A DNA stretch of 64,000 nt from an uncultured Bacilli bacterium (GTDB lineage: Bacteria; Bacillota_I; Bacilli_A; RF39; UBA660), in contig CALVYD010000004.1 in NCBI GenBank assembly GCA_944371995.1, positions 11,077 to 75,076 on the forward strand, written 5' to 3'. The notes below the pieces were generated by a model, which saw only the letters and a program-made list of their open reading frames with translations, had not been told where the DNA came from and did not search any database. Positions 2,846-56,815 of the stretch are shown one piece after another (within the stretch, counting starts at the first letter, position 1; each line of letters opens with the position of its first letter). The translations under genes and the position numbers were made by a program.

Positions 2846-3181
2846 ATGTTAAATCAGGTGGTTTTGGTTGGTAGAATTGTTTATGATTTAGAGTTAAAAA
2901 AGAATGATTCTGGTAAAAAATACTTGTCTTTGGTGTTGGCTATTCCTAGAAGTTTTAAAAATATAGAAGGTACTTATGATACGGATTTTATTCGGTGTAT
3001 TGTTTGGGATAATGTAGCATCTAATACAAGTGAATATTGTAAGAAAGGAGATATTGTCGGATTAAAGGGTCGCTTACAGTCTAGGATAGTTGAAAAAAAT
3101 GAGAAGAGGGAAAATATTATGGAGGTGATAGGAGAAAAAGTTACTTTTTTAACTTCTTCTAAAGAAAAGGAGGAAAATTAA
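2846..3181 (+). CDS. ssb: Single-stranded DNA-binding protein, short SsbB-like
   Basis: MLNQVVLVGR...TDFIRC..W...KKGD.VG..GRLQSR OB-fold motifs; no DDDLPF tail. Confidence 0.9.
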   Translation: MLNQVVLVGRIVYDLELKKNDSGKKYLSLVLAIPRSFKNIEGTYDTDFIRCIVWDNVASNTSEYCKKGDIVGLKGRLQSRIVEKNEKRENIMEVIGEKVTFLTSSKEKEEN

Positions 3182-48564: not shown

Positions 48565-49187
48565 ACATTAATTTTAATTGTTTTTTCATGTTTTTCTATC
48601 AGACCTTTTTCTTCCATTCTTTTTAATTCTCTCATTAAATTTGATCTATCTACAAATAAATATTCTGCAATGGCTTTGTAGGATGTGGTTACTTTAAATA
48701 TATGATTGTCATTCATTCTCTGTTTTAAGAAAAATAATAATTTTTCTTCTACACTACGTTTGGATAATAGTTCTATTTTCTCATTTTGTTGTTTGTTATC
48801 TACTATTAATAAGTCGAATAATGTCATGACTAAATTGTTATGAAATGAACAGTTGATATTACAATTTTTTAATATGTTATAATAATCAATAAAAATTACT
48901 TCTGTTTCTTTATTACTGATAATGTAAATGTCATCTTCCGTATCTTGAAAAAATAAATTTGAAAATATGTCATTTTCTTTTAACTCTCTCATTATAGTTA
49001 CATTTCCTTCACTATCATTTTTAACAATATTAGCTTTTCCATAGGTTATAAAACCTATGTTTTTTTTTGTTGGAAAAGAACTTAATATAGTTTCTTTATT
49101 GTAAAATATTTTACGTTTGACATTGACACAGTTTGACAAATTCTTCTTAAATTCTGTTATTCTTGTTTCTTCTAGTGTTTTTGTCAT
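48561..49187 (-). CDS. Crp/Fnr family transcriptional regulator
   Basis: cNMP-binding-like N-domain; CNINCSFH motif; HTH IAEYLFVDRSNLMRELKRM...G.I. Confidence 0.9.
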   Translation of the reverse strand: MTKTLEETRITEFKKNLSNCVNVKRKIFYNKETILSSFPTKKNIGFITYGKANIVKNDSEGNVTIMRELKENDIFSNLFFQDTEDDIYIISNKETEVIFIDYYNILKNCNINCSFHNNLVMTLFDLLIVDNKQQNEKIELLSKRSVEEKLLFFLKQRMNDNHIFKVTTSYKAIAEYLFVDRSNLMRELKRMEEKGLIEKHEKTIKINV

Positions 49188-49229
49188 ATTTATCACCTCA
49201 ATATTTTTAATTTTAACAAAATTTATTTA

Positions 49230-49247
49230 TTGTTGCAAATGCAACAA
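49230..49247. promoter_or_regulatory. Palindromic operator, probable site for the adjacent Crp/Fnr protein
   Basis: TTGTTGCA-AA-TGCAACAA in the divergent intergenic region. Confidence 0.75.
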
Positions 49248-49305
49248 ATGTTTTTTCTTTTTGTAGAGTAGAATGGAATCTATAGAATAGGGAGATAGTA
49301 TATAT

Positions 49306-51438
49306 ATGACGAAAGATATTATGATTGTAAAAAGAAATGGTAATTTAGAAAAATTTGATCCAGAACGAGTAAAAAAAGCAGTTGTTGCTAGTGCTGAGAG
49401 AGTTATGGTTGATTTGACCGAGGATGCTTTAGAACAAATTGTTTCTAAAGTAAGGGAATTTTTAAGTACTCAGACTAGTAATCCTACGGTAGAACAAGTT
49501 CATAGCTGTTGTGAAGCGGCTTTAGAACAAATTAATCCTTTAGTTGCGAAAAGTTATAGAGAATATCGTGATTATAAAAAAGAAATTGTTCATATTTTAG
49601 ATAAAGTGTATAAGAAAGCACAAGTTATTACTTATATTGGTGATAAAGAATGTTCAAATATGGATAGTGCTTTAGTTACTACACAGAGATGTCTAATTTA
49701 TAATAGTTTAAATAAAGAACTTTATAAAAAATTTTTTTTGACAGCTAATGAAATAGAAGCTTGTAAAGATGGATATATTTATATTCATGATATGGCTTTT
49801 CGAAGAGATACTATGAATTGTTGTTTGTTTGATATGGCCAATGTTTTAAAAGATGGTTTTGAGATGAGTAATCTTTGGTATACTGAACCGAAAACATTAC
49901 AGACAGCTTTTAATGTTCTAGGAGATGTTATTATTAATACTACAGCCATGCAGTATGGTGGTTTTACGGTTCCAGAAGTTGATACTGTGTTAAAAAAATA
50001 TGCTAAGAAAAGTTATGATATGTATTATCAGGAGTATTTAGATATTAAGGGTGAAGAGTATAGAGAAGAAGCAGAGGAGTATGCTTGGAAGAAAACTATA
50101 CGTGAGTGTGAGCAAGGTTATCAAGGTGTTGAGTATAAACTTAATACTGTTAGTTCTAGTAGAGGTGACTATCCTTTTGTGACATTTACTTTTGGTGTAG
50201 ATACTGATAAGTACGCAGTAATGATTACAAAAACTATGTTGGATGTACATCGTAAAGGTCAAGGAAAGAAAGGATTTAGACGTCCTACATTATTTCCTAA
50301 ACTTGTATTTTTGTATGATAAAAAAGTTCATGGAGAAGGTGGATGTCTTCGTGATAGTTTTCTTACAGCTATTAAATGTAGTGAAAAAACAATGTACCCG
50401 GATTATTTGTCTTTAAGTGGAGAGGGATATGTTCCAGAAATGTATAAAAAGTATGGTAGAATTGTGTCTCCCATGGGATGCAGAGCATTTTTGTCACCAT
50501 GGTATGAGCATGGCGGAATGGAGCCAGTAGATAAAAATGATAAACCGGTTTTTATTGGTAGATTTAATATCGGGGCGGTTTCACTACATCTACCTATGAT
50601 TTTGGCAAAGGCTCGTGAAGAACAAAAAGATTTTTATGAAGTATTAGATTATTATTTAGAAATGATTCGCCATATTCATCTTAGAACTTATAGGTATCTT
50701 GCAAAACGTAAAGCATCTACGAATCCACTTGCATATTGTCAAGGTGGTTTTTATGGAGGACATTTAAAACCAGAGGAAGCAATTGAGCCTGTATTAAAAT
50801 CTTCTACTGCATCTTTTGGCATTACGGCTTTAAATGAGTTACAAGTTTTATATAATGGGAAAAGTATTGTAGAGGATGGACAATTTGCACTTGATGTTAT
50901 GAAATATATCAATAAGAAAATAACAGAGTTTAAGAATGAAGATCATATTTTATATGCAATTTATGGAACACCAGCTGAGAATTTGTGTGGCTTACAAATT
51001 AAACAGTTTCGTAAGAAATATGGAATTATTCCTGGCGTTAGTTCTCGTGAATATGTCTCTAATAGTTTTCATTGTGGTGTCTGGGAAGATATTACAGGAA
51101 TCGAGAAGCAAGATTTAGAAGAGAGATTCTGGGATTTATTTCGAGGTGGACGTATTCAATATGTTCGTTATAATTTAAGTTATAATACAAAAGCTATGGT
51201 TACTTATGTAGAAAGAGCTATGGAAAAGGGTTTTTATGAGGGTGTTAATTTGTCTTTATCTTATTGTAACCATTGTGGACATGAAGAATTAGATATGGAT
51301 GTGTGTCCAAAATGTGGTAGTACGGATCTTACTAAAATTGAGAGAATGAACGGCTATTTGTCTTATTCAAGAGTTCATGGAGATACGATGCTTAATAATG
51401 CTAAAATGGTGGAAATTTCTGAAAGGAAGTCTATGTAA
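49306..51438 (+). CDS. nrdD: Anaerobic (class III) ribonucleoside-triphosphate reductase, full length
   Basis: ATP cone, IHD..NCC, MGCR finger loop, TPAE, CxxC..CxxC, ERMNGYL glycyl-radical motif. Confidence 0.95.
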   Translation: MTKDIMIVKRNGNLEKFDPERVKKAVVASAERVMVDLTEDALEQIVSKVREFLSTQTSNPTVEQVHSCCEAALEQINPLVAKSYREYRDYKKEIVHILDKVYKKAQVITYIGDKECSNMDSALVTTQRCLIYNSLNKELYKKFFLTANEIEACKDGYIYIHDMAFRRDTMNCCLFDMANVLKDGFEMSNLWYTEPKTLQTAFNVLGDVIINTTAMQYGGFTVPEVDTVLKKYAKKSYDMYYQEYLDIKGEEYREEAEEYAWKKTIRECEQGYQGVEYKLNTVSSSRGDYPFVTFTFGVDTDKYAVMITKTMLDVHRKGQGKKGFRRPTLFPKLVFLYDKKVHGEGGCLRDSFLTAIKCSEKTMYPDYLSLSGEGYVPEMYKKYGRIVSPMGCRAFLSPWYEHGGMEPVDKNDKPVFIGRFNIGAVSLHLPMILAKAREEQKDFYEVLDYYLEMIRHIHLRTYRYLAKRKASTNPLAYCQGGFYGGHLKPEEAIEPVLKSSTASFGITALNELQVLYNGKSIVEDGQFALDVMKYINKKITEFKNEDHILYAIYGTPAENLCGLQIKQFRKKYGIIPGVSSREYVSNSFHCGVWEDITGIEKQDLEERFWDLFRGGRIQYVRYNLSYNTKAMVTYVERAMEKGFYEGVNLSLSYCNHCGHEELDMDVCPKCGSTDLTKIERMNGYLSYSRVHGDTMLNNAKMVEISERKSM

Positions 51439-51977
51439 TGAAGTATCATAATATTACAAAAGCGGATATGCTTAACGGGGAAGGGCTTCGTGTGGTACTC
51501 TGGGTTTCTGGTTGTTCTCACCATTGTCCTGGCTGTCAGAATGCAATTACCTGGGATCAAACAGAAGGGTTAGAGTTTGATAATACTGCTAAAGAAGAAA
51601 TTTTTGCTGAACTTGAAAAGGACTGGTGTAGTGGTCTTACACTATCTGGAGGTGATCCTTTATTTTATGGTAATCGATGTGATATTTCTAGTTTGGTTGT
51701 TGAAGTCAAAGAGAAATTTCCTAATAAAACAATATGGCTTTATACAGGGTATACCTGGGAAGAATTATTAGAACAGGTAACGTCTGATAATAATTTAGAT
51801 ACAATTTTGAAACATATTGATGTATTATTAGATGGAAGGTTTGTTTTGAAACTTGCTAGTTTAAAAATACATTATGTAGGAAGTAGTAATCAAAAAATTA
51901 TTGACGTTCCGAAAAGTTTAGCTAATCAAGAAAAAATATTATATATTGATAATAGTGAGGTTTTAGAAAGTGAATAG
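51438..51977 (+). CDS. nrdG: Anaerobic RNR activating protein
   Basis: NGEGLRVVLWVSGCSHHCPGCQN, GSSNQ. Confidence 0.95.
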   Translation: MKYHNITKADMLNGEGLRVVLWVSGCSHHCPGCQNAITWDQTEGLEFDNTAKEEIFAELEKDWCSGLTLSGGDPLFYGNRCDISSLVVEVKEKFPNKTIWLYTGYTWEELLEQVTSDNNLDTILKHIDVLLDGRFVLKLASLKIHYVGSSNQKIIDVPKSLANQEKILYIDNSEVLESE

Positions 51978-52392
51978 TATAGTAAATAAATTAAATAATG
52001 GTTATACTTTGTATTTTTCTTATGATAGAGATGAAAATGCTAGAGCTGGTTATTTAAAGAAAACTGATTATGGTATGATACCTAGTGCTTTGACAGGTGA
52101 GGCAGAATTTCCATATGTTTTAGATTTGGTAAAGCAGGGTCGTACTTTGCAACTTTGTCTTAGTGATGTTGGCTTTATGTTTACTGCTATGCTTGGCAAT
52201 GCGATATTAGAGGGACCTTATGGAGAAGAAGAGTGCCTTGATTAAACAATTGTTGTCAGTGATTCAAATATTATGTTAGTTTTAGAAAATAGAGAACATG
52301 TTAGTTATCAGAAGGCTTACCGATTGTATGGTAGTGATAAATATCGTGTTTATACAAAGAAATTTTTGGAGGGAAGTAAGTATGAGAAATAG
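51970..52392 (+). pseudogene. Hypothetical gene interrupted by an in-frame TAA at 52243-52245
   Basis: The same frame stays open for 48 further codons to TAG 52390-52392, overlapping the dut start. Confidence 0.55.
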
Positions 52393-52834
52393 AGGATTTG
52401 AAATAGTTAAAGGTTATGAAGATAAGGATATCCATATTCCAGTTAGAAAGACAAAACATTCTGCTGGATATGATGTGGAGGCTGCAGAAGATATTGTAAT
52501 ACCAAAGTATTATCCTGGTATTAAGCCGACATTAATTCCTACAGGGTTAAAAGCGTATTGTAGGGAGGATGAGTGCTTTTTATTATTAAATCGTAGTAGT
52601 GGCCCTAAAAAAGGGTTTGTGCTTGCTAATAGCGTTGGTTTAGTAGACTCTGACTATTATGGTAATCCTGATAATGATGGTCATTTTTACTTTGCTTATT
52701 TTAATTGTAGTGATCATGATATTAATGTAAAAAAAGGAGATGTTATTGGACAAGTAGTATTTCAGAAGTTTTTAGTTACGGATGACGATAGTGCAGTTGG
52801 AGAGAGACTAGGAGGGTTCGGGTCTACTGATTAA
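52382..52834 (+). CDS. dut: dUTP diphosphatase (trimeric)
   Basis: SAGYD, RSS, GLVDSDYY, IGQ and RLGGFGST motifs; start MRNRGFE after GGAGG. Confidence 0.93.
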   Translation: MRNRGFEIVKGYEDKDIHIPVRKTKHSAGYDVEAAEDIVIPKYYPGIKPTLIPTGLKAYCREDECFLLLNRSSGPKKGFVLANSVGLVDSDYYGNPDNDGHFYFAYFNCSDHDINVKKGDVIGQVVFQKFLVTDDDSAVGERLGGFGSTD

Positions 52835-53166
52835 AAATCTAAAAAAATTAAAAATATTTAAAAGCTATTTTTTTTAATTTTTAATTTTTTTTTGCAATTT
52901 TTTCTTGTAAAATGTTGAAAAATAAGGAAAATATTCGTTTTTAATATTTAATTTTTAACAAAAATATAAAAAATGATTTTAATAATTTTTAAAAAATGTC
53001 TATTGTTGTAAATTGTCGTAAATCGAACAAAAAACATTTTTTTACAAAATCTAGCTATATCAATACTTTTGAAAAAAGTGGTAAAATTTTCATGATATTG
53101 TCTATTGCATTTTAGAATTTTGCATTTTACAATTGATGTAGACATAGAGGTTTTGGAGGTAAATGT

Positions 53167-55497
53167 ATGGCAGATACAAATGAGTTAAATGAGATGTTAG
53201 AAGATGTTACAGTAATTAAGAGAAATGGTAAAAAAGTGGCTTTTGATGGAGCAAAAATCGCTTTGGCAATAAAAAAAGGGTTTGATAGTGTTGAAATTGA
53301 TGATGATGAATCTGAAAAGGAGAGAAAATATACTTCACAAGATATTCAAAAAGTATATCAAGCTGTTTTAAAAAAGATTGAACGTGATGCGAAAGAGAAA
53401 AATAATCGCTTTAAGATAGAAGAGATTCAAGATTATATTGAAGGAGAACTTTCTAGTAAAGGATATGATGATGTTTATAAATCATTTTCTGAGTATCGTG
53501 AAAGAAGAAATCAGTCAAGAGAGAGTTTCTTTGGAGATAATAAGACTCATAAGTTTTTAAAATCTTTAGAAAATTTAGGTTTAAAATCAGCTAATGAAGA
53601 AGATGCGAAACGAGAAAATGCTAATATTGATGGAAATAGTCCCATGGGAACCATGCTACAGTATGGAGCAACAGTTTCTAAAGAGTTTGCAAAAGCATAT
53701 TTAATGAAGAAAGAGTATGCTGAACTTCATGATAATGGTACTATTCATATTCATGATATGGATTTTCTAGCCATGGGAACTACTACTTGTTGTCAAATTG
53801 ATTTATCAAAATTGTTTAAAAATGGATTTGATACTGGACATGGTTATGTTCGCCCTCCACAAGATATTTCAACATATGCATCCCTTGCTTGTATTGTTAT
53901 TCAAGCAAATCAAAATGATCAACATGGTGGACAAGCGATACCAGCTTTGGATTATTATTTAGCACCAGGTGTTCTTAAAACTTTTAAAAAACAATTTAAG
54001 CAGACAATTTATGATTTCCTTGATTTAGAGGGATTTATTCCAATTATTAATATTGACAGAATTATTCGTGAGATTGATAAGCTAGAATCTATTGAGGTAA
54101 AGGTAGAAGAGTTTAGTGATTATAGTAAAGGCTCAAGTCGAATTCATGAAATTTTTGAAAAGAGTTATGAAAAAGCGTTACAAAAGACTGATCGTGCTAC
54201 ACAACAAGCAATGGAAGCATTTATTCATAATTTAAATACTATGCATTCTAGAGCAGGTGCTCAGGTTCCATTTTCTTCTGTTAATTTTGGAACAGATACT
54301 TCTCCTGAAGGTAGAATGGTAATAAAGAATTTCTTACTTTCTGCTGATCGTGGACTTGGAAAAGGTGAAACACCAATCTTTCCAGTATCTATATTTAAGG
54401 TAAAAGAAGGAGTTAATTATAATAAAGAAGATCCAAATTACGATTTATTTAGATTAGCTTGTCAGGTTTCTGCAAAAAGACTTTTCCCTAACTTTGCCTT
54501 TATTGATGCTCCATTTAATAAACAATATTATAAAGAAGGAGATTTTAATACAGAAATTGCTTATATGGGATGTCGTACTAGAGTTATCGGCGATGTTACT
54601 TCTCCAGATAATGAAGTGGTTACAGGACGTGGAAATTTATCTTTTACGACGATTAATTTACCAAGACTTGGAATTAAATATGGTATTTGTTTGAAAGAAA
54701 GAGAAAAACCAGATATGAAAGGTTTTTATCAAGAACTTGGGGAAGTAATGGATATTGTTCGTGATCAGTTACTAGAACGTTTTGAAGTACAATGTAGTAA
54801 ACATAATTATAATTTTCCATTTTTACTTGGACAAGGTGTTTGGACGAACGGAGAAAAGTTAAAACCATCTGATCGTCTTCGTAAAGTTTGGAAACACGGA
54901 TCTTTATCTACTGGATTTATTGGTCTTGCTGAGTGTCTAAAAGCCTTAACTGGTAAACATCATGGTGAAAGTGAAGAAAGTCAAAAATTAGGGTTAGAAA
55001 TTATTAAGTTTATGCGTGATCGTTGTGATGAGAACTCTAAAAAATATAATTTGAATTTTACTTGTTTAGCAACACCAGCAGAAGGATTATCTGGTAGATT
55101 TACTAGAATTGATAGAGCTATTTATGGAAAAATTAAAGGTGTTACAGATAGAGAATATTATACAAATTCTTTCCATATACCAGTTTATTATCATATTAGT
55201 ATTACTGATAAAATTGAGAAAGAAGCTCCATATCATGAATTTACTAATGGAGGTCATATTTCTTATATTGAATTAGATGGTGATACTGCTTCTAATGTTG
55301 ATGCTTTTGAAAGAGTTATTCGTGTGATGAAAGAAGCTGGTATAGGATACGGGGCAATTAATCATCCAGTGGATCGTGATCCTGTTTGTGGATATGTTGG
55401 TGTGATTAATGATGTATGTCCTAAATGTGGACGTCGTGAATTTGAGGGCGTTCCGATTGAACAGATTACATCTATTGATAATAATTGTTGTGAATAG
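53167..55497 (+). CDS. nrdD: Class III RNR catalytic subunit lacking the C-terminal glycyl-radical domain
   Basis: ATP cone, IHD..TTCC, MGCRT, TPAEG, YYTNSFH, DPVC..CPKC; ends ..DNNCCE with no RxxGY. Confidence 0.93.
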   Translation: MADTNELNEMLEDVTVIKRNGKKVAFDGAKIALAIKKGFDSVEIDDDESEKERKYTSQDIQKVYQAVLKKIERDAKEKNNRFKIEEIQDYIEGELSSKGYDDVYKSFSEYRERRNQSRESFFGDNKTHKFLKSLENLGLKSANEEDAKRENANIDGNSPMGTMLQYGATVSKEFAKAYLMKKEYAELHDNGTIHIHDMDFLAMGTTTCCQIDLSKLFKNGFDTGHGYVRPPQDISTYASLACIVIQANQNDQHGGQAIPALDYYLAPGVLKTFKKQFKQTIYDFLDLEGFIPIINIDRIIREIDKLESIEVKVEEFSDYSKGSSRIHEIFEKSYEKALQKTDRATQQAMEAFIHNLNTMHSRAGAQVPFSSVNFGTDTSPEGRMVIKNFLLSADRGLGKGETPIFPVSIFKVKEGVNYNKEDPNYDLFRLACQVSAKRLFPNFAFIDAPFNKQYYKEGDFNTEIAYMGCRTRVIGDVTSPDNEVVTGRGNLSFTTINLPRLGIKYGICLKEREKPDMKGFYQELGEVMDIVRDQLLERFEVQCSKHNYNFPFLLGQGVWTNGEKLKPSDRLRKVWKHGSLSTGFIGLAECLKALTGKHHGESEESQKLGLEIIKFMRDRCDENSKKYNLNFTCLATPAEGLSGRFTRIDRAIYGKIKGVTDREYYTNSFHIPVYYHISITDKIEKEAPYHEFTNGGHISYIELDGDTASNVDAFERVIRVMKEAGIGYGAINHPVDRDPVCGYVGVINDVCPKCGRREFEGVPIEQITSIDNNCCE

Positions 55498-55535
55498 TTA
55501 TATATATATAATAAAGAAAAGAGGAGTGAAATATT

Positions 55536-55700
55536 ATGGAAAAAATTATTGGTGAAGGACAAAAGTTTGAAAGAATTAGACGAGTTACTGGATATTTAGC
55601 TGGAGATGTTTCTAGATTTAATAATGGTAAACGTGCAGAAGAAAGAGATCGTGTAAAACATTCTGGATTAAAAGAAATTATGTCTAAAGAAGGTAAGTAA
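55536..55700 (+). CDS. Stand-alone NrdD glycyl-radical domain, 54 aa (not in ORF track)
   Basis: MEKIIGEGQKFERIRRVTGYLAGDVSRFNNGKRAEERDRVKH...; own GAGGAG RBS; stop lies 1 nt before the nrdG ATG. Confidence 0.92.
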   Translation: MEKIIGEGQKFERIRRVTGYLAGDVSRFNNGKRAEERDRVKHSGLKEIMSKEGK

Positions 55701-55701
55701 T

Positions 55702-56253
55702 ATGAAAATAAGATTGGCTGCCTATCTACAACCAGACTCTATTGTAGATGGTGAGGGTATTCGAACTGTTCTATGGACGCAAGGATGTCCTCATCATTGT
55801 CCTGGATGTCATAATCCTGATACTCATGATTTTGAAGGCGGGGCGTTGATAGATGTAGATGAAGTTATATCAGAACTTAAAAAGATTAAAAATCAAGATG
55901 GAATTACTTTGTCTGGTGGAGATCCAGTATGTCAGGCAGATGCTTGCTACGAAATTAGTAAAGCAGCTCATGCACAGGGACTTAATGTATGGTGTTATAC
56001 TGGTTTTACGTATGAGCAAATGTTATTAAATCCGAAAGCAAGGCGTTTACTTGAACAAATTGATGTTTTAGTAGATGGTAAGTTTATTTTGGAAGAGAAA
56101 AGTTATGATCTTTATTTTAGAGGATCTAGAAATCAAAGAATTATTGATGTTGCTAAAAGTTTAGAACAGCAACGAGTAGTTCTTATTGATAAATATATGC
56201 AAGATAAAAATTATCAGATAAGTTATAAAAAACCAGATTATTTATTTATTTAA
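55702..56253 (+). CDS. nrdG: Anaerobic RNR activating protein, second copy
   Basis: DSIVDGEGIR..QGCPHHCPGCHNP, FRGSRNQR. Confidence 0.95.
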   Translation: MKIRLAAYLQPDSIVDGEGIRTVLWTQGCPHHCPGCHNPDTHDFEGGALIDVDEVISELKKIKNQDGITLSGGDPVCQADACYEISKAAHAQGLNVWCYTGFTYEQMLLNPKARRLLEQIDVLVDGKFILEEKSYDLYFRGSRNQRIIDVAKSLEQQRVVLIDKYMQDKNYQISYKKPDYLFI

Positions 56254-56317
56254 TTAATTAATCTGGTTTTTGATTTGACAAAATAGTAAAGATGAGTGTA
56301 CAATCTATATATAGGAT

Positions 56318-56815
56318 ATGGAAATAGATATTGATAAAGAGGTGGAAAGAATGAAAAAATCTAATAGTAAATTCAAGGGGAAAGTTGGTTTTATTATCGT
56401 ATTACTTGCAGTTATTCTGATTGCGGTAGGTTTGGTACTAGTTTTTTTACCAGATAAGGAAGAAGCTAAGTCCAATAAAACAATTACTAATGATAGTGAA
56501 GAATTAAAAAAACTTCATTGTTTAGACGGTTTATGTGTTGAAAAAATGGATATTTCTTATAATGAGGGAGAAGGAGTAGGTTCTATACTTTTCTATATTC
56601 AAAATACTGGTGAAGTAGATGTTCCTGCTGGCTTTTTAAAGGTTGTTTTTGATAACAGTAATCAAAAAGAATTTATTTTACGTTATGTAGATTTCTTACC
56701 AGGGGATACTCAGTCTATAGAAATTGAATTTACAGAAAAAGATATTACTGAAACTACTGATTATGAATTACAATATTTAACAGAAGAAGAGTTACAAACT
56801 GTTACTTCTTACTAG
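56318..56815 (+). CDS. Hypothetical membrane-anchored protein
   Basis: Single TM; Ig-like beta pattern; TTGACA-18nt-TACAAT promoter at 56275-56304. Confidence 0.65.
   Translation: MEIDIDKEVERMKKSNSKFKGKVGFIIVLLAVILIAVGLVLVFLPDKEEAKSNKTITNDSEELKKLHCLDGLCVEKMDISYNEGEGVGSILFYIQNTGEVDVPAGFLKVVFDNSNQKEFILRYVDFLPGDTQSIEIEFTEKDITETTDYELQYLTEEELQTVTSY

Follow-up and report, generated by a model that had tools for sequence, protein, structure and literature searches.

Oxygen destroys glycyl radical enzymes (GREs) through cleavage at the radical glycine. For pyruvate formate-lyase (PFL) small replacement proteins have been described, YfiD and Y06I being the only validated spare parts according to the available text of a 2021 article (PMC8683613), and the accessible portion of a 2026 review (PMC13450708) states that spare parts have been identified only for formate lyases, that their existence for other GREs is yet to be determined, and that YfiD overlaps the strand kept by oxygen-cleaved PFL. 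In NrdD, the catalytic chain of class III ribonucleotide reductase (RNR), the glycyl-radical domain of the one-chain enzyme consists of a zinc site, a buried Gly loop and a C-terminal tail (P. copri; available text of PMC11226230). Here we analysed a 64,000-nucleotide stretch of DNA from an uncultured Bacilli bacterium (the window) in which one nrdD is divided between two adjacent genes, a large body and a 54-residue protein carrying the radical loop, followed by the activase gene nrdG. We interpret this locus, with a probability of roughly 0.85, as an operon of body, radical subunit and nrdG encoding an obligate two-subunit class III RNR, which would have arisen by a one-time split via duplication of the 3′ end of the gene.

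Split RNRs have precedents, among them the NrdA of Aeromonas phage Aeh1. The class II RNR of Pseudomonas aeruginosa is split into NrdJa and NrdJb, the second chain carrying C-terminal accessory domains (PMC4520616, as cited in PMC9669993), and class II is the only class for which the accessible part of PMC9669993 gives a split RNR. As in NrdJa/NrdJb, the catalytic subunit described here comes from two adjacent conserved genes; it belongs however to another RNR class, is cut at another place, and bears the radical residue on its second chain. With the one-chain NrdD and NrdG systems of phage T4 (1H78/1H7A), P. copri (8P23) and E. coli the split form has in common the fold, an ATP-cone, a Cys finger loop, a putative zinc ribbon, an RxxGY loop and an adjacent nrdG. 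In contrast to them, its radical Gly lies on a separately translated 54-residue chain and its body ends in what appears to be a decayed copy of the loop, so that the cut falls inside the glycyl-radical domain as defined in the available text of PMC11226230.

The nrdD body encodes an ATP-cone, a ten-stranded barrel, a thiyl-radical finger loop, a zinc ribbon and a vestigial loop tail, with 22 residues separating the C-P-K-C-G of the zinc ribbon from the stop codon (Table 1). PF13597 matches the body with 632.7 bits (cut-off 26.2) over profile positions 1-533 of 562 and the NCBIfam model PRK07111 with 1011.7 bits (cut-off 764) over positions 4-715 of 746, while the small protein takes up PF13597 positions 531-562 and PRK07111 positions 710-744. 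Aligned with the P. copri NrdD chain 8p23_A, the body (581.8 bits) covers residues 8-708 and the small protein residues 707-740. These complementary ranges on family profiles and a solved NrdD identify a clean cut between the two proteins: the body ends at PRK07111 position 715 without the Gly-Tyr loop, which sits on the next open reading frame (ORF). PF13597 is the sole Pfam match of the small protein, and PF01228, the PFL-type glycyl-radical domain, gave no match to it. The reading frames of body and small ORF differ, and nrdG starts one base after the stop of the small ORF. A scan of positions 48800-56500 identified no plus-strand terminator-like site between 53167 and 56253, and its 46 promoter-like sites, against 40.2 expected, were uninformative. 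The original prediction had described an NrdD ending in DNNCCE, a 38-nucleotide (nt) gap with GAGGAG, a 54 amino acid (aa) radical-loop ORF and nrdG behind it, all of which were found where it had placed them. It had also regarded the glycyl-radical domain as a separate protein; this holds for the radical loop and C-terminal tail, which are all of NrdD on the small protein, whereas the zinc-ribbon half of the domain stays on the body.

Table 1 Features of the split nrdD operon, the neighbouring one-chain nrdD and a longer free-standing radical-loop gene (positions in the window unless a locus is named)
Feature	Position	Strand	Basis or remark
nrdD body, 776 aa	53167-55497	+	ORF; ends ...DNNCCE then TAG; without radical glycine
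ATP-cone, residues 15-115	53209-53511	+	PF03477, 46.4 bits
Finger loop Met467-Gly468-Cys469, presumed thiyl-radical Cys	54565-54573	+	Invariance; alignment with MGCRTRV of P. copri NrdD
Zinc-ribbon region, residues 738-755 (D-P-V-C ... C-P-K-C-G)	55378-55431	+	Alignment with the 8p23 zinc-site region
Body tail, residues 757-776 and TAG, ends Cys-Cys-Glu	55435-55497	+	In-register profile score
Gap between nrdD body and small ORF, 38 nt	55498-55535	+	Raw sequence
GAGGAG ribosome-binding site of small ORF	55521-55526	+	9 nt before ATG; raw sequence
nrdD radical subunit, 54 aa: glycyl-radical loop and C-terminal tail	55536-55700	+	PF13597 and PRK07111 matches
Gly19 codon, predicted radical glycine, in RVTGY	55590-55592	+	Aligned with Gly of RITGY in 8p23; invariant
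nrdG activase, 183 aa, radical SAM (S-adenosylmethionine)	55702-56253	+	TIGR02491, 157.8 bits (cut-off 126.1); PF13353
One-chain nrdD, 710 residues	49306-51438		Own nrdG; nrdD and nrdG span 49306-51977
Example of the 87-114-aa form (loci L049-L058)	L053:2981-3250	-	Beside L053:3252-3620 (-)

A survey of homologs for the same split, as the original prediction had proposed, showed that the arrangement is shared across the genus and much of the family. In a first sample of 41 related genomes searched with the small protein, 19 of 20 other species of the window's genus had the radical loop in an open frame of 56-66 aa and three of four other genera of the family had it in one of 69-70 aa, whereas all five matches in other families fell within frames of 614-796 aa, NrdD there being therefore fused. 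A family-wide sample of 41 genera, one genome each, contained NrdD throughout and identified 18 split genera, 15 by separate profile matches and three by an in-frame stop that the search had read through. A further sample, drawn across the class (399 scored genomes), included 50 family genomes, of which 20 were split and eight fused.

Alignment of the junction from 23 split loci showed that a stop codon at the end of the body is always present (TAG in 17, TAA in 6), that the ATG of the small ORF and the gene order body-small ORF-nrdG are kept in all 23, and that a purine-rich ribosome-binding site is visible at the same place in most. The gap varies from 2 to 41 nt and the frame of the small ORF relative to the body is 0, 1 or 2 in 12, 5 and 6 junctions respectively. 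Such variation of gap and frame around a kept stop, ribosome-binding site and ATG argues for independent initiation; as a general mechanism, read-through, frameshifting and a bypass like that of gene 60 are excluded. Recoding of the two ORFs to one fused protein could draw on the window's own GAA-TAG ... ATG-GAA, in which the second GAA lies 47 nt downstream in the manner of the T4 gene 60 take-off/landing pair, but it is highly improbable given that the conserved elements are those of initiation, that in-frame cases have further stops in the gap and that the small gene precedes the body in two phage loci. Ribosomal bypass and read-through over the gap, considered as candidates, were ruled out on the variation in gap length and frame.

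The 25 split bodies fell on one side of a branch (SH-aLRT 95), with a single state change, in a maximum-likelihood tree of 37 NrdD bodies that used only the columns before the C-terminal region. Both parts are under purifying selection. Within the genus, the mean pairwise ratio of nonsynonymous to synonymous substitution rates (dN/dS) is 0.049 in the core of the small ORF, and the body gave 0.075 in its adjacent part and 0.086 in the 13 tail codons. All 22 split bodies aligned keep the Met-Gly-Cys finger loop and D738, P739, V740, C741, C751, P752, C754 and G755 without variation, and the small protein has 19 invariant columns among 22 sequences, including R-R-x-T-G-Y-L and Gly19. The zinc-ribbon site, at which metal binding is predicted, is thus conserved as three Cys and one Asp, as opposed to four Cys in many NrdDs. 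Studies of the T4 and E. coli enzymes lead us to take Cys469 as the presumed thiyl-radical cysteine, and the Met-Gly-Cys loop is presumably a signature of the formate type.

The junction itself is bridged without insertion or deletion by contigs from four public sequencing runs of three studies, comprising three RNA-library runs (two studies) and one further run, with a single C to A substitution at position 55472 in one of the four. The original prediction had named a fused ORF in close relatives or in reads as one finding that would refute it; instead the split is common to the genus and the runs agree on the junction. That the locus is an error of sequencing or assembly, or a recently formed pseudogene, has a negligible probability: nothing was found in favour of it, and against it stand these contigs, a split in at least 18 genera forming one clade and a small-ORF dN/dS of 0.05. 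The two-gene NrdD is strongly supported as an inherited arrangement, neither error nor pseudogene.

Many of the genomes contain no RNR other than the split enzyme among those searched for. None of the 41 family genomes gave a match to PF02867, the catalytic domain of class I/II, for which the control was positive in 12 of 14 named genomes; in 13 of the 18 split genera, body and small ORF were the only NrdD matches. Together with conservation, single origin, purifying selection and the same junction in independent runs, this bears out the earlier proposal of a natively two-piece RNR that is no simple frameshift. The window differs from these genera in that a one-chain nrdD locus lies about 4 kb upstream of the split operon, and this copy is full-length in 17 species of the genus (87-94% identity), paired with the split locus. 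Such conserved pairing at a distance of 4 kb could suggest that the split nrdD is a decaying pseudogene and that its small ORF serves the one-chain NrdD next to it as a spare part. We consider this very unlikely, as the split body is under purifying selection with all catalytic residues kept, most split genera have no second NrdD, and the neighbour is a distant one: its identity to the split NrdD is 29% over residues 222-675, its radical loop is dissimilar and it lies on a very long separate branch of the NrdD tree. The small protein moreover matches the PRK07111-type model of the split body and not the best full-length model of the neighbour. Rescue of the neighbouring full-length NrdD by the small protein, suggested in the original prediction, is unsupported, given the same low identity, the differing loop and the 13 genera with no second NrdD.

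The tail of the body contains traces of how the split may have come about. With both sets anchored at the last zinc-ribbon Cys-x-Arg, the tails of 20 split bodies (first 13 residues) were compared with the same positions of four fused relatives. The in-register score was 14.9, as against at most 0.8 at 27 other offsets, and 13 of 20000 shuffles of column order reached the in-register value. This argues that the tail derives from the original radical loop, of which it keeps the linker and first strand in decayed form; judged from these alignments, the small ORF appears to carry an intact second copy of the stretch that has decayed in the body tail. The radical Gly-Tyr of the fused proteins stands at positions 16-17 after the anchor, and 11 of the 20 split bodies have a Cys at tail position 16, where the radical Gly stood; four sampled tails, including the window's, have Cys-Cys at positions 18-19 after a two-residue insertion, and three of the 20 have no Cys. 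In Bilophila wadsworthia the small protein shares 40% identity over 35 residues with its own body tail (E 4e-05), and the body keeps a longer decayed loop in which Gly-Tyr is still present. This less advanced decay supports a duplicated 3′ end whose upstream copy then lost its function. On this view an ancestral one-chain gene would have been split once, through duplication of its 3′ end, and the upstream duplicate would have decayed to the short tail still on the body.

Cys-rich C-termini recur on either the body or the small protein. These include the window's body (55483-55494) and the small ORFs of loci L014, L037, L038, L040, L219 and L220; at L014, whose body has no Cys-rich end, the Cys cluster is at the end of the small protein. 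One idea is that such ends may act as a metal clasp between the two chains.

Body and small protein were co-folded, each with a 22-row alignment, and gave an ipSAE of 0.82, the best of three controls scoring 0.00; of the pairs used to set the mark for this score, 116 of 157 solved complexes attain it, as do 2 of 215 mismatched pairs. The runs had at least 94% contact agreement and a partner pLDDT of at least 77. The predicted interface of 171-184 contacts involves body residues 468-470 (the Cys loop), 673-682, 698-704, 732-740 and the tail at 756-767. One-chain NrdD structures have already been solved and the pass may therefore reflect likeness to them; the model suggests that the two chains can rebuild the known NrdD fold, binding itself being a further step. 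Assembly, activation on the small chain and catalysis, as we infer them by analogy with one-chain enzymes, would proceed with docking of the 54-residue protein into the body barrel at the site of the one-chain C-terminal loop, which would place Gly19 beside Cys469. NrdG with S-adenosylmethionine would then take a hydrogen from Gly19, and the resulting glycyl radical would generate the thiyl radical for nucleotide reduction, formate being the probable reductant. Since the adjacent parent gene has no radical loop, the small chain would be obligatory at the split locus.

Several points weigh against an obligate two-subunit RNR of this origin. The two-chain enzyme is known here from genes, comparisons and a co-fold alone. 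The contigs from RNA libraries are firm for the sequence of the junction but weak evidence, and no proof, of transcription, since such libraries can hold DNA. The relic signal seen in the family-level test and in Bilophila is absent from the window's own pair, for which pairwise BLASTP of the small protein against its body gave no tail similarity (E 0.71). The window's genus also keeps the complete one-chain NrdD 4 kb upstream, so that the split enzyme is not the sole source of deoxynucleoside triphosphates in the window genome. Finally, these gut organisms, with their small genomes, could in principle live on salvaged deoxynucleosides, and being the sole RNR found is no proof of essentiality.

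The original prediction had cautioned that similar short NrdD-like ORFs may exist in other Firmicutes, and such ORFs proved to be widespread in the family samples, in protein clusters, in viral contigs and in species-representative genomes. Among 5.8 billion clustered proteins we identified 1764 homologues of 29-95 aa, and the best 150 matches among 1.84 billion 50%-identity representatives were all of 45-193 aa. In species-representative genomes the loop lay in a short frame at 77 of 80 kept loci, whose titles are mostly those of uncultured Bacilli, Tenericutes or Mycoplasmatota metagenome-assembled genomes from the gut. Other carriers include Succinivibrio dextrinosolvens DSM 3072 (L221), Bilophila wadsworthia ATCC 49260 (L219), Agathobaculum hominis (L220), Desulfovibrio and Succinatimonas. 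Body, adjacent small ORF and nrdG were present in all five of the latter genomes that were searched, cultured strains of other phyla (Bilophila, Agathobaculum, Succinivibrio) among them. The tails in these genomes follow the same pattern, which looks like one subclass spread by transfer. A number of these genomes have orphan copies of the small gene elsewhere, with five in Bilophila (on other contigs), two in Succinatimonas and one each in Succinivibrio and Desulfovibrio.

The small gene is also carried by phages. Among 80 viral loci kept, 75 showed the motif and 74 of these had the loop in a short frame; an NrdD body lay within 3 kb at 13 of the 80. Two viral loci (L090 and L093) have the small gene at about 3001-3120 and the body from about 3120, the reverse of the bacterial order. 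Neighbours of the viral small gene include terminase, endolysin and ParB-methyltransferase genes, and the GC content of the contigs ranges from 0.24 to 0.69. Five whole phage records were checked (CheckV 77-100%), two of them with terminal repeats, and in all five the loop was the only NrdD match, with no body. Orphan phage small ORFs of about 50-70 aa lie at about 2950-3180 of L060, L062, L067, L074, L076, L098, L102 and others.

The orphan copies of the small gene in complete phage genomes and in other bacteria argue for a chain able to act in trans. They lend indirect support to the cheaply replaceable radical subunit of the original prediction, and replaceability after oxygen damage is plausible. 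The 54-residue protein may be an exchangeable radical cartridge, armed by NrdG, of which a fresh copy would replace one cleaved by oxygen at Gly19 without remaking the 776-residue body, and with whose orphan copies phages could re-arm the reductase of their host or boost it; we offer this tentatively, at somewhat less than even odds. The body ends about where oxygen would be expected to cut a one-chain NrdD, a parallel to oxygen-cleaved PFL, and with its end near the former position of the radical glycine it would in effect be a genetically pre-cleaved NrdD, the operon being a hard-wired GrcA rescue complex. Opposed to an exchangeable cartridge, though not to the two-subunit structure, is a functionally neutral split in which a stable two-chain enzyme, equivalent to one-chain NrdD, never exchanges its small chain and the fission, following a duplication, was fixed by chance (constructive neutral evolution). 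The gene order kept at every junction, by which the chains are probably made together, the large predicted interface and the window genome, which has no extra copy of the small gene (one match), are all consistent with a neutral split, which we regard as possible but rather short of probable. It is harder to reconcile with the small gene standing alone in complete phage genomes and with orphan copies beside a split operon, as in Bilophila, which are difficult to explain without action in trans.

Comparison with the known spare parts bears on the cartridge proposal from both sides. Like GrcA/YfiD of E. coli and Y06I of phage T4, the 54-aa protein is small, free-standing and holds the radical loop region only; it presumably relies on the parent enzyme's activase, as GrcA/YfiD does; the tail of the split body appears to duplicate the start of the small protein in the way that YfiD overlaps a PFL strand; and phage-borne copies exist, as they do for the PFL parts. 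Unlike GrcA/YfiD it is homologous to NrdD (PF13597) and not to PFL, has no structured extra domain in its 54 residues, and belongs to a parent nrdD that has lost its own loop, so that it would be an obligatory part and no backup.

We found no description of a split NrdD or of an NrdD-type spare part in full-text literature, a scope that leaves aside subscription journals and supplements, of which the RNR lists in those of PMC9531940 and PMC9669993 might bear on the matter. The accessible parts of PMC9531940, PMC3019208, PMC4390871 and PMC11528403 likewise yielded no description of a split NrdD. The split form is apparently widespread and undescribed in print. A large group of gut anaerobes would thus carry the radical of a DNA-precursor enzyme on a separate small protein, whose gene also travels alone in phages, and the question of spare parts beyond PFL becomes directly testable with three small genes. 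If the cartridge proposal is true, this would be the first spare-part system for a GRE other than PFL. There are also consequences for annotation. A truncated body can be taken for a pseudogene, the label given to the small ORFs is either 'anaerobic ribonucleoside-triphosphate reductase' or 'hypothetical', and RNR censuses made from full-length sequences may miss or misjudge the split subclass.

A second free-standing form of the loop, of 87-114 aa, was identified in 14 of the 399 class genomes. These proteins consist of a conserved N-terminal domain of about 50 residues, without a known family, followed by the NrdD radical loop. A profile comparison of this N-terminal domain with the NrdD body gave no relation (probability 0.2), and no solved relative of the proteins was found beyond the loop. 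These proteins of Erysipelotrichales-type bacteria resemble the 54-aa protein in a near-identical radical loop and tail on a free-standing gene, and differ from it in the extra N-terminal domain and in sitting far from nrdD. A fused NrdD was also matched in 13 of the 14 genomes, the fourteenth (G171) having the short frame only. In four loci of one family the gene adjoins that of desulfoferrodoxin (superoxide reductase). NCBI labels for these proteins, in Thomasclavelia, Tannockella and others, are again 'anaerobic ribonucleoside-triphosphate reductase' or 'hypothetical'.

The one-chain nrdD upstream of the split operon has neighbours of its own. Beside it and its nrdG lie a 91-aa ORF without a Pfam family (51970-52245) and a dUTPase gene (52298-52834), and a faecal phage record contains an NrdD with 65% identity to the one-chain protein. 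At loci L045 and L046, from two further genera of the family, the NrdD is about 785 aa long and continues past the radical loop into a C-terminal extension that looks thioredoxin-like by eye.

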